64,000 bases of DNA from an uncultured Bacteroidales bacterium (lineage in GTDB: Bacteria > Bacteroidota > Bacteroidia > Bacteroidales > UBA7960). Numbering within the stretch: position 1 is the stretch's first letter; each line of letters opens with the position of its first letter. The stretch covers positions 6,742 through 70,741 of the forward strand of contig CAZUWF010000009.1 in assembly GCA_964624065.1 (NCBI GenBank), given 5' to 3'. This document shows, in pieces, positions 20,707 to 26,248 of the stretch. The position numbers and the translations under genes are program-made. A model generated the notes under the pieces. It was given only the letters and a program-made list of their open reading frames with translations, was not told the origin of the DNA and searched no databases.

Positions 20707-20974
20707 AGTTCAAAAGTACAAAATCATACCCTTTCCTTTAAAATATCGTGTATAATTTTTTCAACAAAAATTTTTACCGGCACTTCTTGCATAAATGTAG
20801 AAGCCTGCTGGTAATGTTTTATCCGTTTTGATTAAACAATTACTTCCCTATTGGGTTAGGATTATTGTAACCGGTCATTGGTAATTCGATCGAAATTTTT
20901 ATTTACTTTGCCAATCAATATCGTGTTCAGAAACTATTAAGTGCGTAATTTTCTTACCCTCAATTTATTTTGAA

Positions 20975-21643
20975 ATGAAAAAGCTTTTTGCGATTGTTGG
21001 GGCAATTGGATTTTTTGCTTTATTATTTTACTCTCCTGACCAACAAAATGATGCTGTGCAATCAGGACTTGTACCAAACCGTATGCCGGTGGCCGGCCAA
21101 GGGGCTTTTTTTAATGCCATTCCTGGTCAAAACAATACCTCCACGGCAGGAATGCCAGTGACTAATCCAACAAATGCGAATCTTGGGCCAATGCCCGAGT
21201 TTAACCCACCACACGGTCAGCCTTGGCACAGGTGCGAGATTCCTGTTGGGGCACCTCTTAATTCGGCTCCCCAAAGCACGGGTTCCAATATGAACCAACC
21301 CGTGGCGCAATCTGGCCCAAGTGCATCGCCTGCAAACTCAGGGGTGAAGCCAAAGTTGAATCCTCCCCACGGGGAACCCTGGCATAGGTGCGACATTGAC
21401 GTTGGTGCACCCTTAGATTCGCCTCCTCGAAGCACCAGCACTCAGGCAACTACCAATAATGTTGCCTCAAATCCAGAAATAATAACACCCATAATTCCCC
21501 CAAACCCCCTTGAAGGGCAGGTCAAACAACCTGTTATTGACAATCAAGATCCGGCAAACACCGGTCCAAAGCCCGCCGTTAATCCACCCCATGGCCAGCC
21601 GTGGCACAGGTGCGACATTAAAGTTGGTGACCCGCTTCCATAG
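20975..21643 (+). CDS. secreted or membrane-anchored Pro/Asn/Gln-rich protein with three His/Cys motif repeats
   Basis: N-terminal hydrophobic segment MKKLFAIVGAIGFFALLF. Three near-identical 22-aa modules follow (listed as repeat features below). Confidence 0.7.
   Translation: MKKLFAIVGAIGFFALLFYSPDQQNDAVQSGLVPNRMPVAGQGAFFNAIPGQNNTSTAGMPVTNPTNANLGPMPEFNPPHGQPWHRCEIPVGAPLNSAPQSTGSNMNQPVAQSGPSASPANSGVKPKLNPPHGEPWHRCDIDVGAPLDSPPRSTSTQATTNNVASNPEIITPIIPPNPLEGQVKQPVIDNQDPANTGPKPAVNPPHGQPWHRCDIKVGDPLP
21194..21259 (+). repeat. motif copy 1: PEFNPPHGQPWHRCEIPVGAPL
   Basis: aa 74-95 of the 20975-21643 product. Confidence 0.9.
21350..21415 (+). repeat. motif copy 2: PKLNPPHGEPWHRCDIDVGAPL
   Basis: aa 126-147. 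Confidence 0.9.
21572..21637 (+). repeat. motif copy 3: PAVNPPHGQPWHRCDIKVGDPL
   Basis: aa 200-221, at the very C-terminus. Confidence 0.9.
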
Positions 21644-21814: not shown

Positions 21815-22222
21815 ATGAAAAAAAAGCCTGTAATAATGGCCTTTTTTGTTTTAGCAATTGAGTTTTCATTTGCCCAGGTGACACTCCAAGTGGAGGTTTT
21901 CAACTTTCGAAACAATAAAGGTATTGTTCACATTGAACTCAAAAATCAAGAGCAAGAACAGGTTGCAGCCCAATCCACAGCAATACAAGACAAAAAGTGT
22001 GTTTTTGTTTTTGATGGATTGGAGCCGGGCAAGTACTCCTTCAGGTTTATTCACGATGAAAACCAAAACAACGAAATTGACACCAACTGGCTAGGTATTC
22101 CCAGGGAGGGATTTGGATTCTCCAATAATCCACGTATGACATTTGGCCCGCCCAAGTTTCCCAAAACCCTGTTTGAACTAAAAGAATCAATGGTAATTAG
22201 GGTTAAGCCAAAATACTTCTAA
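21815..22222 (+). CDS. DUF2141-like secreted protein
   Basis: Signal peptide. NNEIDTNWLGIPREGFGFSNNPRMTFGPPKF matches my memory of the DUF2141 core. Confidence 0.7.
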   Translation: MKKKPVIMAFFVLAIEFSFAQVTLQVEVFNFRNNKGIVHIELKNQEQEQVAAQSTAIQDKKCVFVFDGLEPGKYSFRFIHDENQNNEIDTNWLGIPREGFGFSNNPRMTFGPPKFPKTLFELKESMVIRVKPKYF

Positions 22223-22233
22223 CCTTTTTTCAA

Positions 22234-22716
22234 ATGAATATGGAAACAACAGGAACCGTGCCCAAAAACCAAGATGATGAAATGATTGAGTTAAACATTG
22301 ACACCGTCAAAGAATTGTGGTCGCAGACCTACAACCGCGAGGGCAAGCCCGACTGGTCGCATATTTTCAAATACTACCACAAAGACATTGTTTTTCAAGA
22401 CACAATCCAGCGCATAGAAGGCATTGATGATTTTGTGGCAATGTGCAACCGCCTCACGAAGCGTACCAAGCAGTTGCAGATGGAAATTGTGTCAATTACT
22501 CAAAACGAAAACGTTATAATGTTTGATTGGGTAATGACAATGATGTTCAAGAAATACCCCAACACCCCGATGTTCGGCGCAACCAAACTGGTTCTGAGCC
22601 ACGATGGGTTGATCATTCAACAAAGGGATTACTACGACCTTTGGGGCGACATTTTCAACAACATACCGCGCTTCGGTACAATGTACCGCAGGTTTTTGAA
22701 AAGAAAATTCGGTTGA
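22234..22716 (+). CDS. NTF2-like / SnoaL-like fold protein
   Basis: 160 aa. The size and pattern (YHKDIVFQDTIQRIEGIDDF...IMFDWVMTM...VLSHDGLIIQQRDYYDLW) are typical of the NTF2 superfamily. Confidence 0.6.
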   Translation: MNMETTGTVPKNQDDEMIELNIDTVKELWSQTYNREGKPDWSHIFKYYHKDIVFQDTIQRIEGIDDFVAMCNRLTKRTKQLQMEIVSITQNENVIMFDWVMTMMFKKYPNTPMFGATKLVLSHDGLIIQQRDYYDLWGDIFNNIPRFGTMYRRFLKRKFG

Positions 22717-22726
22717 TGAGCTGCCC

Positions 22727-23677
22727 ATGAAGAAGAGAACAAGAAAATATTTTGGTCAATACAAGTGGTCAAACATTTTGTCGATGATAAAAAACAATAT
22801 GCGCGATCCGAAAGCTTGCCAGGAGGATTTTAGGAACAACCTTGTTGTAATAACCGGGGCAACATCTGGAATCGGTTACCACACTGCACGAAAGTACGCA
22901 GCAATGGGTGCAAACCTTTTGTGCGTGAACCGAAACCAGGAAAAATCAGAAAAACTCAAGTGCGAAATCGAAGGAGAATTCAACGTTAAATGCGATTACA
23001 AGATTGCAGACTTGAGCCTTCTGAAGGACACCTACAGGGTAACCGAGGAGCTTTCAAGGATTAATAGCCCGATTGACGTAATAATTCACAATGCTGGCGT
23101 TTACCTTACCAAGAGGGAGCTTACTTCCGAAGGGTTTGAAAAGGTACTTGTAGTTCATTACCTTTCTTCGTTCATTATGAATTACAAGTTGATGTCAAAA
23201 CTAAGGGAGCAGGAGAAGGCCAGAATCATCATGGTAGGCTCCGAGGGGCACCGATTTGCCGCTTGGGGTTTGAGGCTGGATGATTTGAACTGGGAAAAGA
23301 GGAGGTATTCGGGCTTGAAAAGCTACGGTTCGGCCAAATTAGCTCAACTATTGTCAATGTTGGTTTTTGAAGACCATCGCAAGGGAACGGGAGTAAGCAT
23401 AAACACCATGCACCCCGGAGCAGTTAAAACCGACACTGGTCAAGAAAACGGACCAATTTACAAGTGGTTAAAGCGAAATTTTTTGGACAAAGCCCTGAAA
23501 TCGGCTCAGGTATCGGCAGAAGCCTTGTATTACCTGGGGGTTTCACCAGAAATTGAGGGAGTTAGCGGGAAATTCTTCAACCTAACAACCCCCGAGGATC
23601 CTGCGCCACCTGCCGTTGACAGGGAGGCTGCCAATGAACTTTGGACCGAAACACTCAAAATTACCGGCCTTAATTGA
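22727..23677 (+). CDS. short-chain dehydrogenase/reductase (SDR)
   Basis: VVITGATSGIGYHTA (TGxxxGIG), NAG motif (IIHNAGV), and the YGSAK catalytic Y-x3-K. Confidence 0.85.
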   Translation: MKKRTRKYFGQYKWSNILSMIKNNMRDPKACQEDFRNNLVVITGATSGIGYHTARKYAAMGANLLCVNRNQEKSEKLKCEIEGEFNVKCDYKIADLSLLKDTYRVTEELSRINSPIDVIIHNAGVYLTKRELTSEGFEKVLVVHYLSSFIMNYKLMSKLREQEKARIIMVGSEGHRFAAWGLRLDDLNWEKRRYSGLKSYGSAKLAQLLSMLVFEDHRKGTGVSINTMHPGAVKTDTGQENGPIYKWLKRNFLDKALKSAQVSAEALYYLGVSPEIEGVSGKFFNLTTPEDPAPPAVDREAANELWTETLKITGLN

Positions 23678-23705
23678 CATTGAGGTATTTGTTTCAAAAA
23701 ACACC

Positions 23706-25322
23706 ATGGAGATGAATCCAAAAAATTACCATACCGTTGTTGTAGGAGGCGGGATTGCAGGATTGACAGCTACGGCCTATTTGGCCAAGGCGGGAAAAAA
23801 AGTTATATTGATAGAAAAAAACCACGAGGTTGGCGGGTTGGTCAACTCCTTTTGGCGAAACGGTTTCAAATTTGAGGCAGGAGCCAGGGCACTAGAAGAT
23901 GCTGGGATAATTTTTCCATTTCTCAAGGATCTAAACATTGAAATGGAGGTAATGAAAAGCAAGGTTTCGTTGGGCATCGAGAAAAAGGTAATGCACGTTG
24001 AAGACCTAAATAGTTTGGAGGAGTACCGTGAACTTCTGAGGGAGTTTTACCCCGGTAGCCATAAGGATATAGACCACCTTTTTAGGACAATCAAAAAGGT
24101 AATGAAGCACATGGAGATTCTATACGGCATAGAAAACCCTGCCTTCAAGGATGTAAGTAGAGATTTGAAATATGCTTTCACTCAACTATTGCCCTGGCTC
24201 CCTAGATTCATCCTTACTGTTGGAAAAATAAACCGGATGCAACTACCGGTTGAAGAGTACCTTGCGAAAATCATTAATGACAGGCATCTTAGAGATATTA
24301 TCTCACAACACTTCTTCAAAGGCACCCCTTCATTTTTTGCCTTGAGCTATTTTTCGCTTTACCTCGACTATTTTTATCCTAAAGGTGGAGTGGGAACCCT
24401 TTCAGAATCGATCAAAGAAAAAATCATTGAACTTGGCGGAACTATTAAAAACGCAACCCTAGCCAAGGAGGTTATTGCCGATAAAAAAATTGTGATCGAT
24501 GACCAAGGGAATGCCTACACATACGAAAACCTGATTTGGGCAGCCGACCTCAAAACCCTATACAACATTACCGATTTGGGAAACCTGCCGACCAAAGTCA
24601 AAGCCAGGACCCAAAAGTTGAAGGCTAAAATGATGGTCCACAGAGGGAGCGAGTCGGTAATTTCACTTTACTTGCAGATCGACGAACCACTAGAAACCTT
24701 TGGAAAAATTGCCAACGGTCATTTTTTCTACACCCCATCAAGAGAGGGATTGGATCAAACACATCGAGCCGACTTGAACGCTTTGATTGCAAACTTCGAA
24801 GCTACTCCGAAAGAAGAGGTGTTGAAGTGGATGGATAGGTTCACTTCACTCAATACTTACGAGATATCAATTCCGGGTCTCAAGGATAGCAGCTTGGTGC
24901 CTCCCGGAAAAACCGGAATGATAATAAGCCTTCTTGCAGATTATGAGTTGTTTAGAAAGGCCAAGGAGGCAGGCTGGCTTCAAGAGTTTGTTGTCGAATT
25001 TGAAAACCGAATGATTGCCACCTTATCCGAAACAATTTATCCTATACTCGAGGGCAAGATAATTGGTCGGTTCTCGTTCAATCCACTTAGCTTCCAAAAC
25101 CGTATAGGCACCTCAGAAGGTGCAATAGTGGGATGGGCGTTTCATAAGGACTTGCCAGTGAGGAACAAAATACAGCACGGGGCACTCTCGGTTTTAACTC
25201 CCCTCCCATCAGTTTTTCAGGCCGGCCAGTGGGCATACAGCCCGGCCGGTGTACCAATGTCGATCCTTACCGGTAAACTTGCCGCAGACAAGGTTATGAA
25301 GAGCAAGCCCAGGCCTTTTTAA
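23706..25322 (+). CDS. NAD(P)/FAD-dependent oxidoreductase, phytoene-desaturase (CrtI/COG1233)-like
   Basis: YHTVVVGGGIAGLTATAYLAKAGKKVILIEKNHEVGG is a dinucleotide-binding fold. The track start 23616 overlaps the SDR gene; ATG 23706 sits just before the Rossmann motif. Confidence 0.85.
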   Translation: MEMNPKNYHTVVVGGGIAGLTATAYLAKAGKKVILIEKNHEVGGLVNSFWRNGFKFEAGARALEDAGIIFPFLKDLNIEMEVMKSKVSLGIEKKVMHVEDLNSLEEYRELLREFYPGSHKDIDHLFRTIKKVMKHMEILYGIENPAFKDVSRDLKYAFTQLLPWLPRFILTVGKINRMQLPVEEYLAKIINDRHLRDIISQHFFKGTPSFFALSYFSLYLDYFYPKGGVGTLSESIKEKIIELGGTIKNATLAKEVIADKKIVIDDQGNAYTYENLIWAADLKTLYNITDLGNLPTKVKARTQKLKAKMMVHRGSESVISLYLQIDEPLETFGKIANGHFFYTPSREGLDQTHRADLNALIANFEATPKEEVLKWMDRFTSLNTYEISIPGLKDSSLVPPGKTGMIISLLADYELFRKAKEAGWLQEFVVEFENRMIATLSETIYPILEGKIIGRFSFNPLSFQNRIGTSEGAIVGWAFHKDLPVRNKIQHGALSVLTPLPSVFQAGQWAYSPAGVPMSILTGKLAADKVMKSKPRPF

Positions 25323-25333
25323 ACACCACATTA

Positions 25334-26248
25334 ATGGGAAAAATTGAAAAAGCAACAGAAAATAGGTCGGTTTTCGCATCCAAACTATTTCAATTTTTGC
25401 TTGTAATGGTAGGCTTCAAAAGCCGAATGGACAGGAATATTGTAAAAGACAAGTACCGGAAAACTCCAGCAAAAATTCCAAGATCCTTTGAGCGGAAAAA
25501 TACCGTGAAGGTTTCCACTATAGATGGACGAATTGTTTGGAACATTTCCCCCAAATCCCACCACCCCGAAGTAGTAGTAATTTATTTGCACGGCGGAGCT
25601 TATTTTTCCAACCTTACGTTGCTCCATTGGCCACTCATAGCGAAACTACTCGAAAAAACAGGGGCAAAAATCATTGTTCCGGATTACCCTTTGGCACCCA
25701 AATTTACCTGCACCGACACATACACTTTTCTCGACAAACTACACGATAAAGTTTTGGAAGAAAACCCCGCGAAGCGGATTGTTTTCGTGGGCGATTCGGC
25801 AGGTGGGGGTCTGGCAATGGGGTTTGCCCAACAATTAAGGAATGAAGGAAAAACACTGCCCGACCACCTCATACTTTACTCGCCCTGGCTTGACGCATCA
25901 ATGACCGACCCAAATTTAAAGAAATTGGAAAAGACCGAAAAGGTTTTGAGCTTGAAAGGGTTAAAAAAGGCCGGAGAAAAATATGCGGGTTCCCATGATA
26001 TAAAAAACTTCAGGGTAAGTCCCTTGTATGGCAACCTGAAAGGTTTAGGAAAAATCTCAATATTCACTGCAACTCACGAAATGCTTAATGCTGACGCTAA
26101 AAGGTTTAAAGAAAAGGCAATTGAAGCGGGTATTTATCTAAACTACTTCGAATACAGGGGGTTATTTCACTGTTGGGTGCTAGTGCCCTTTCTCGGTGCA
26201 ACCCAAGATGTTGTGCAAAAAACAGCTAGATTGATAAAAACCTGTTGA
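25334..26248 (+). CDS. alpha/beta hydrolase, HSL-type (family IV) esterase/lipase
   Basis: HGGAY oxyanion motif and the GDSAGG nucleophile elbow. Confidence 0.8.
   Translation: MGKIEKATENRSVFASKLFQFLLVMVGFKSRMDRNIVKDKYRKTPAKIPRSFERKNTVKVSTIDGRIVWNISPKSHHPEVVVIYLHGGAYFSNLTLLHWPLIAKLLEKTGAKIIVPDYPLAPKFTCTDTYTFLDKLHDKVLEENPAKRIVFVGDSAGGGLAMGFAQQLRNEGKTLPDHLILYSPWLDASMTDPNLKKLEKTEKVLSLKGLKKAGEKYAGSHDIKNFRVSPLYGNLKGLGKISIFTATHEMLNADAKRFKEKAIEAGIYLNYFEYRGLFHCWVLVPFLGATQDVVQKTARLIKTC

Follow-up and report, generated by a model that had tools for sequence, protein, structure and literature searches.

A candidate metal(loid)-binding array of repeated His-His-Cys boxes in an uncultured Bacteroidales bacterium

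What is the role of a protein in which the same short motif, with two His residues and one Cys residue, is displayed three times along an otherwise variable chain? Such a protein is encoded in the analysed DNA, a 64,000-nucleotide stretch from an uncultured Bacteroidales bacterium (hereafter the window). Each copy of the motif is called here an HHC (His-His-Cys) box. We think it reasonably probable, from sequence, structural models and the gene contexts of relatives, that the small loops of this protein chelate metal(loid)s and form an array tethered to the cell envelope, which would serve as a buffer, a sink or a relay.

Three boxes along an anchored chain

The gene is a complete coding sequence for a 222-amino-acid protein, which consists of an N-terminal hydrophobic helix, spacers rich in Pro, Asn, Gln, Ser and Thr, and three modules of 22 amino acids. 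The product and the three modules reported in the first-pass annotation were both reproduced from the sequence, and orthologs and homologs have the same architecture. The parts of the gene are as follows, where pLDDT is the predicted local distance difference test score of the AlphaFold2 model.

20975..21643 (+): the whole HHC box protein gene, stop codon included, from the list of open reading frames (ORFs) and the sequence
20975..21040 (+): residues 1-22, MKK and a hydrophobic segment, a probable uncleaved signal anchor (N-terminus in, C-terminus out)
21041..21193 (+): spacer 1, residues 23-73, rich in Pro, Asn, Gln, Ser, Thr and Gly, predicted to be disordered (pLDDT below 50 for residues 23-70)
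21194..21259 (+): HHC box 1, PEFNPPHGQPWHRCEIPVGAPL, residues 74-95, candidate ligands H80, H85 and C87 (E88), pLDDT about 75
21260..21349 (+): spacer 2, residues 96-125, predicted to be disordered (pLDDT below 50 for residues 98-122)
21350..21415 (+): HHC box 2, PKLNPPHGEPWHRCDIDVGAPL, residues 126-147, candidate ligands H132, H137 and C139 (D140), pLDDT 72-80
21416..21571 (+): spacer 3, residues 148-199, predicted to be disordered (pLDDT below 50 for residues 153-192)
21572..21637 (+): HHC box 3, PAVNPPHGQPWHRCDIKVGDPL, residues 200-221, the C-terminal 'W-type' box, followed by Pro and the stop codon, candidate ligands H206, H211 and C213 (D214), pLDDT about 85

There are only three Cys residues in the protein (C87, C139 and C213), one for each module. 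The boxes are spaced 52 and 74 residues apart, and a single residue separates box 3 from the protein end. For every pair of modules 17 of the 22 residues are identical, and 7-10 of these 17 are encoded by differing codons. The intragenic repeats are therefore old and have been kept at the protein level, and this synonymous divergence rules out a recent DNA duplication or chance as their origin. A comparison with the ortholog of a sister genome, which is 64% identical overall, is equally uneven. The modules share 63 of 66 residues (95%) with it versus 64 of 134 (48%) for the spacers, and alignment A1 shows no variation at residues N77, P78, H80, G81, P83, H85, R86 and C87 or at the equivalent residues of the other two boxes. 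Purifying selection thus acts on the boxes and not on the spacers, as the first-pass annotation had argued from the single sequence.

An AlphaFold2 model built on a 16-sequence alignment has an N-terminal helix at residues 2-18 (pLDDT about 80) and boxes with pLDDT of 70-85, in each of which one beta-bridge closes the box. The spacers fall below a pLDDT of 50, and the predicted template modelling score (pTM) of the whole model is 0.23. From ordered boxes, disordered spacers and this low pTM, the protein is predicted to be a set of compact, independent beads on a disordered string. The flexible tether that had been proposed earlier for the modules is supported by the modelled disorder of the linkers. 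A Foldseek search of the model against the PDB gave no matches, which is expected because the model is mostly disordered.

The N-terminus reads MKK, then 15 hydrophobic residues, then YSPDQQ. Neither a lipobox Cys nor an Ala-x-Ala site is found there in the sequence of the window protein, and the same is true of its closest orthologs. The lipobox pattern [LVI][ASTVI][GAS]C does not occur at the end of the signal peptide, where the first Cys is as distant as residue 87, and it is also missing from the close orthologs P0002-P0006. This rules out a lipoprotein identity for the window copy. Because lipobox and Ala-x-Ala site are both lacking and the N-terminus is modelled as a helix, the protein is more likely held in the membrane by a signal anchor that is not cleaved, which would place the boxes in the periplasm. 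Of the earlier description as a secreted protein with an N-terminal anchor or signal, the hydrophobic N-terminus stands, and free secretion gives way to membrane anchoring as the more likely state. This protein anchor would take over the function that a lipid anchor has in most relatives.

The HHC box family and its genomic contexts

The family to which this protein belongs is large, unnamed and outside the domain databases. Clustering at 90% identity gives about 2,080 representatives with E<=1e-3 and clustering at 50% identity gives 1,483, 884 of these with E<=1e-10, and where the source names a member at all the name is nearly always 'hypothetical protein'. Family members have 110-400 amino acids, no other domain, and 2-7 boxes (most often 3) at a median spacing of 54 residues. 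Low-complexity linkers of roughly 30-100 residues lie between the boxes, the last of which is at or near the C-terminus, and a lipoprotein lipobox is present in about 70% of homologs. The window protein shares the defining features, which are at least two boxes, an N-terminal export signal, spaced linkers and a C-terminal last box, and its full-length similarity to other HHC members is significant.

These proteins are found in Bacteroidota (Chryseobacterium, Flavobacterium, Pedobacter, Chitinophagaceae, Bacteroidales and Marinilabiliales), with a few in metagenome-assembled genomes labelled Zixibacteria or Dadabacteria. Their spread through the phylum is patchy. There is one copy in the window's own genome, the gene occurs in 11 of 41 related genomes, and in an even sample of the phylum it occurs in 26 of 401 genomes and 11 of 180 genera.

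Profile scans of the window protein against Pfam-A and NCBIfam returned no family at E<=10. Profiles for SilE/PcoE, Pht (Strep_his_triad), HMA, bacterial metallothionein and bufferin (DUF2282) likewise gave no matches. A description of the family was not found in the literature searched by motif strings and by the themes of HMA/TonB receptors, DUF1573 with arsenic, and Bacteroides ars genes. The possibility raised by the first-pass annotation, that the motif might map to an already characterised domain, thus found no such domain in Pfam, NCBIfam, the PDB, Foldseek or the literature. Domain fusions, sought among proteins of 438-1,393 amino acids and with a doubled homolog query of seven boxes, were not found at E<=1e-5, a weak negative given that low-complexity words of the linkers may fill the candidate list.

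The working pattern of the box is NPxHGxPxH(R)C(D)IxVGxPL, about 20 residues long, and the family consensus is (G)(L/M)NP[PAEK]HG[QEK]P[G>N,F,W,Y]HRCDI[AP]VG[AQ]PL. Circularity was avoided by re-locating boxes solely by residues that are not candidate ligands (NP..G.........G.P[LIM]), which yielded 787 boxes. Numbered from the first His as position 0, both His0 and His5 are conserved in 100% of these boxes and Cys7 in 97.6%. Among the 19 exceptions, 17 replace Cys by His together with a change of Val11 to Asp. Across the family, the non-ligand positions N-3, P-2, G1, G12, P14 and L15 are each conserved in at least 94%, and HHC boxes are among the most strictly conserved short motifs that one can find. 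The His and Cys positions, whose fate in homologs the first-pass annotation had singled out as decisive, are therefore almost fully retained. The same annotation had described an invariant H-x3-W-H-x-C-(D/E) set, in which both His and Cys hold for the family and the Trp holds only within the window protein, given that the residue before the second His (position 4) is Gly in 84% of boxes family-wide and Trp in 1%. To a lesser extent than Trp, the Asp/Glu and Arg positions also vary across the family.

Genes were called in about 135 loci and their neighbours clustered, which gave roughly 30 context types. Two recurring associations concern the branches closest to the window protein, one with ars operons and the other with a receptor that carries HMA (heavy-metal-associated) domains. 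Among relatives from the same order as the window (five of them from its own genus), 6 of 8 loci lie within six genes of ArsC, ArsM, ACR3 or ArsP, as do 7 of 18 close metagenome hits. Four more close metagenome hits are on short contigs, on which only ArsR or DUF1573 was seen. A typical cluster, encoded on one strand, comprises DsbD_2, a thioredoxin-like lipoprotein, ArsP_1, ArsR, DUF1573, the HHC protein, an IscA/HesB-like protein, ArsR, ArsC (LMWPc), ArsM and ACR3, as annotated by Pfam in L131, L146 and L113-L116. Independent ars-linked cases are found in Mariniphaga (L045), in two Zixibacteria-type loci (L080 and L124) and in L128, where the HHC gene is accompanied by ArsD, ACR3, ArsR and an FtsX/ABC pair.

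DUF1573 directly adjoins the HHC gene in 9 of 133 loci, and its C-G-C motif occurs as Sec-G-C in L124. There, an exported DUF1573 / OS_HP2-like protein is encoded beside the HHC gene at L124:5087-5560 (+), with an in-frame TGA at the first Cys of C-G-C ('PG-U-GC', U69). About 89 further residues can be read past this TGA in a frame that remains open and makes sense, and so the protein is probably a selenoprotein that was mis-called as a 68-amino-acid ORF. A 'UGC' DUF1573 selenoprotein has been listed (PMC13188914), and the Sec-G-C of L124 matches it. The L080 locus has the same arrangement at L080:8421-8816 ('GT-U-GC'), with a broken downstream frame.

Other members of these clusters are also worth recording. 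In the ars operons of the window's genus, a 107-amino-acid IscA/HesB-like protein (L113:6790-7113 and homologs, cluster c33) directly follows the HHC gene. It has two CC motifs (...GCCGAS... and ...EGCCGGH), and its best NCBIfam match, 'IscA_HesB_Se', is below the cut-off. In the ars-type clusters of three different lineages (L080:5735-8290, L124:2379-5043 and L128:1537-5834), an unannotated exported protein of about 250 amino acids, a MacB/LolC-like FtsX permease and an ABC ATPase are encoded near the HHC gene.

The second association is found in Chryseobacterium and Kaistella, where 41 of the best 80 genome loci place the HHC gene between an RprXY-like two-component system and two downstream genes. 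These encode a small, Cys-rich protein in tight spacing and a TonB-dependent receptor with three CopZ-like HMA domains. The locus L014:10001-14201 represents about 44 Chryseobacterium/Kaistella loci in which a histidine kinase and a response regulator, the HHC lipoprotein, the Cys-rich protein and the receptor are encoded on one strand. The Cys-rich protein has 122-135 amino acids with CC and CxxC runs and matches neither Pfam nor NCBIfam, and the three HMA domains are at the N-terminus of the receptor. Judging from its gene content, this cluster is a candidate metal-uptake system, of which no description was found in the literature. A further recurring neighbour is a DinB_2-superfamily gene, which adjoins the HHC gene on the same strand in two unrelated lineages, Pedobacter (L098, L074 and L097) and Chitinophagaceae (L041 and L060). 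The DinB_2 superfamily comprises His-triad metalloproteins, and the adjacency could be due to chance, such genes being numerous in Bacteroidota.

The residue at position 4 differs between the two associations, in counts that are not phylogenetically independent. Proteins linked to ars genes have no Gly before the second His, with N, Y, F or H in 30 of 30 inner boxes and W, N, F or Y in 22 of 22 last boxes. Gly occupies the position in each of the 88 inner boxes of receptor-linked proteins, whose last boxes have W or F (42 of 44), and mostly Gly is found in other contexts. All three boxes of the window protein have Trp at this position, which puts it among the non-Gly proteins. Binding selectivity is probably adjusted through position 4. 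The terminal box KPxxNPxHGxPWHxCxxKVGDPLP is common to the window protein and the Chryseobacterium receptor-linked proteins, and a close variant of it ends the ars-linked proteins.

A second conserved short motif, (N)NP(T/M)(A/I)PT(I/V)EN(A/I/V)x(R/K)(L/M)N, was observed in ars-linked and related HHC proteins, in the linker that precedes the final box and is otherwise variable. At least 15 of about 133 proteins have this motif (among them those of L113-L116, L120, L130, L131, L133, L136, L140, L142, L145 and L146), and it can be recognised only faintly in the window protein (...IITPIIPPNPLEG...).

Metal(loid) binding, its rivals and the copy in the window

The mechanism that we favour would proceed as follows. 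The N-terminal helix would hold the protein at the cytoplasmic membrane, and the periplasmic part would be a disordered chain displaying three independently folded loops of about 20 residues (NPxHGxPxHRC[D/E]IxVGxPL). In each loop the two invariant His residues and the Cys would chelate a single metal(loid) ion of soft or borderline character, with the following Asp or Glu as an optional fourth ligand. A tethered protein of this kind could buffer a periplasmic metal(loid), serve as its sink or pass it on. We favour this array because conservation follows ligand type, down to the swaps of Cys for His, because selection is confined to the boxes, because the exported protein has a bead-on-string structure in the model, and because relatives have been recruited recurrently into ars operons and beside an HMA-domain receptor. 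The recurrence of DUF1573 as a neighbour and the correlation of position 4 with context are also counted in its favour.

Several observations weigh against a metal(loid)-binding array. Most context types are uninformative, and of 20 loci in the even phylum sample 17 have no marker gene for metal or arsenic handling nearby. In other loci the HHC gene has unrelated operon partners (GNAT, DinB_2, peptidases and a polysaccharide flippase), and the ars-linked cases belong to a small number of lineages, so that their counts are not phylogenetically independent events. Within the box, the candidate fourth ligand is not invariant (D in 81% and E in 8% at position 8 of the 787 boxes), nor is Arg6 (87% of these boxes). 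A profile search of the PDB gave only a spurious signal-peptide match (E=0.41), and there is no solved or homologous structure. In addition, the HHC gene stands alone in the window, and a tblastn search for ACR3, ArsC, ArsR and ArsP found none of them in the window genome, a 2.39-Mb assembly that is 100% complete. Finally, two His and one Cys are poor ligands for As(III), which prefers three thiolates, and for this reason the arsenic context and the ligand set fit together poorly. Judged by its residues, a His2Cys(Asp) set is better suited to Zn, Cu, Ni or Cd than to As(III), and it is the context that favours arsenic or antimony. The Zn/Cu-binding site proposed by the first-pass annotation is thus retained as a site of metal(loid) handling, through conservation and the contexts of relatives, while its choice of metals is loosened by a context that points at least as much to arsenic or antimony.

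Another possibility is that the box Cys, activated by the neighbouring Arg and His, is a redox-active thiol in a relay or a sacrificial role. It would be kept reduced by the DsbD_2 membrane protein and the thioredoxin-like lipoprotein, and its task would be to reduce or trap oxidants or electrophiles of the periplasm (arsenicals, for example), with no equilibrium binding of metal. The ars-type clusters do encode DsbD_2, CxxC thioredoxin-like lipoproteins and DUF1573 proteins with a C/Sec-G-C motif, and Arg precedes the Cys in 87-92% of boxes. However, the prevailing exchange of Cys for His keeps a metal ligand and abolishes thiol, disulfide or cross-link chemistry, both His residues are more strictly conserved than the Cys, and the window gene has neither a DsbD nor a thioredoxin neighbour. 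We therefore consider a redox role unlikely. The same low probability is assigned to the idea that the box is a docking motif, metal-stabilised or metal-free, for an envelope partner such as the TonB-dependent receptor, DUF1573 or the Cys-rich small protein, which would make the HHC protein a scaffold or adaptor and not a metal carrier. The strict conservation of non-ligand residues, which exceeds the needs of a simple chelating loop, would suit such docking, as would the constant placement of the last box at the extreme C-terminus, the tight coupling of the HHC gene to the Cys-rich protein and receptor genes in Chryseobacterium, and the presence of a homologous pair of such genes elsewhere in the window genome. 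Yet there is no one partner gene that recurs throughout the roughly 30 context types, and the conserved Gly and Pro residues are equally well explained as turn-formers that shape a chelating loop.

Identical short cores between variable spacers also resemble a multi-core precursor, from which boxes would be cut as processed or modified peptides similar to pheromones or to ribosomally synthesized and post-translationally modified peptides (RiPPs). This seems highly improbable. There is no radical-SAM, YcaO, MNIO/DUF692 or dedicated protease/exporter gene among the annotated neighbours in the window and in the roughly 30 context types, the core is almost the same throughout the phylum (unlike RiPP cores), and HHC proteins carry Sec or lipoprotein signals instead of leader peptides. 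With no modifying enzymes in any annotated context, a RiPP precursor was rejected.

The tethered array could also be given a more specific form, although we regard this extension as rather doubtful. The HHC box might be an unrecognised metal(loid)-binding mini-domain of about 20 residues whose specificity is set by position 4. Boxes of the aromatic/Asn type, which include all three of the window, might then be the extracytoplasmic arm of Bacteroidota ars operons for arsenic and antimony (or a thiophilic metal), and those of the Gly type might feed HMA-domain receptors. The former would work with DUF1573 (Cys/Sec-Gly-Cys), the thioredoxin-like lipoprotein, DsbD_2 and ArsP/ACR3. If so, they would be a periplasmic arsenical sink or relay, which would have no known counterpart, and ars operons are not known to include any component that binds arsenicals in the periplasm.

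The local role of the window copy is the least certain part of the array interpretation because this copy is an orphan in its genome. The dnaB gene is divergent from the HHC gene across a gap of 268 nucleotides, and a DUF2141 / NTF2-like / SDR / FAD-oxidoreductase operon begins 171 nucleotides downstream. The ortholog in the sister genome (G005 = L013) has the same neighbours, with a downstream gap of 425 nucleotides, and the next-closest members of the subfamily adjoin aconitase or a Fic gene. These gaps and the differing neighbours in the closest subfamily members rule out an operon with the DUF2141 cluster. Membership of the window copy in an ars operon is ruled out as well, given its dnaB and DUF2141 neighbours and a genome that lacks ars genes and thus places the HHC gene outside any arsenic operon.

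The downstream cluster is itself a tightly packed operon of five genes (window positions 21815-26248), which encode DUF2141, NTF2/SnoaL-like, SDR, CrtI-like FAD oxidoreductase and esterase proteins; DUF2141 and SnoaL_2/DUF2358 were confirmed by Pfam. It is kept in the sister genome and shows no obvious co-transcription with the HHC gene. One feature upstream of the HHC gene should be added to the list above.

20895..20917 (+): conserved upstream block TTTTTATTTACTTTGCCAATCA, about 60 nucleotides before the ATG, the longest block conserved with the sister genome in the divergent intergenic region

This block is possibly the HHC gene's own promoter. A scan for sigma-70 promoters and terminators gave nothing convincing, with no hit at 20895-20917, an Rfam search over the whole window found no riboswitch or other RNA, and there is no operator-like palindrome adjoining the HHC gene.

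Outside the window, contig C1 of the same genome (G000) carries two pairs of genes, at C1:188936-191854 and C1:195349-198164, each for a Cys-rich exported protein followed by a TonB-dependent receptor. The small proteins have 156 and 123 amino acids, and one of them matches the hidden Markov model (HMM) of the Chryseobacterium Cys-rich family (E=1.3e-5). The receptors, of 750-760 amino acids, share 32-38% identity with the barrel of the HMA-domain receptor of Chryseobacterium. By this similarity, the two pairs are possible partners of the window HHC protein.

Envelope metal and arsenic handling in Bacteroidota is poorly understood. If the boxes do bind metal(loid)s, they would be a new binding module that would annotate thousands of 'hypothetical lipoproteins', and the box might be a compact metal-binding tag. 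The box is also amenable to experiment, as it has the size of a synthetic peptide, clear candidate ligands and a natural 'specificity' variable in position 4, and tractable hosts with an HHC gene include Flavobacterium johnsoniae and Chryseobacterium.

Comparison with known systems

Bufferins are Sec-exported, MNIO-modified, Cys-containing copper-binding RiPPs that need an adjacent MNIO (DUF692) gene and partner genes. They are small exported proteins with Cys, as HHC proteins are, and have been implicated in metal stress. They differ in belonging to the DUF2282 / BUF_6/12Cys families and in having MNIO partners, none of which was found for the window protein or in its annotated contexts. The HMA domain (PF00403) is, like the HHC box, a modular unit that can be repeated, and three copies of it are carried by the TonB-dependent receptor whose gene is the second one downstream of HHC genes in Chryseobacterium. 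In the HMA domain this unit binds metal through the two Cys of an MxCxxC motif in a folded, ferredoxin-like domain of about 65 residues, to which the window protein has no match.

CusF is a periplasmic Cu(I)/Ag(I) chaperone that uses His36, Met47 and Met49 with a capping Trp44. The placement of a Trp beside its soft-metal ligands resembles, by analogy, the H-x3-W-H-x-C arrangement of candidate ligands in the window boxes. Unlike HHC proteins, CusF folds as an OB-type barrel, has a single site and uses Met ligands, and the Trp is not conserved in the HHC family.

The SilE/PcoE proteins are enterobacterial periplasmic metal 'sponges' of silver and copper resistance islands that are thought to buffer periplasmic metal. 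Like HHC proteins they are small and exported, are disordered without metal, carry several copies of a short motif (in their case metal-binding) and are encoded in metal-resistance clusters. They differ in their His/Met motifs (HxxM/MxxH), in having no Cys and in forming helices on binding; they also have no sequence relationship to HHC proteins, are not membrane-tethered and come from a different phylum.

The Pht proteins are surface lipoproteins of Streptococcus whose HxxHxH motifs each bind one Zn and which pass Zn to AdcAII. They are likewise anchored envelope proteins with a repeated, short and invariant motif, in 5-6 copies, although this motif contains only His, lies in a folded domain and has no homology to the HHC box. 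HHC proteins instead display separate loops of about 20 residues, Cys included, on disordered linkers. The absence of profile matches and the differing ligands and fold place the HHC protein outside both SilE/PcoE and Pht. By analogy, the way in which it would work is nevertheless most like that of the SilE/PcoE sponges or the streptococcal Pht lipoproteins, and the coupling of Pht to uptake is paralleled in Chryseobacterium, where the HHC gene is followed by those of the Cys-rich protein and the HMA-domain TonB-dependent receptor.

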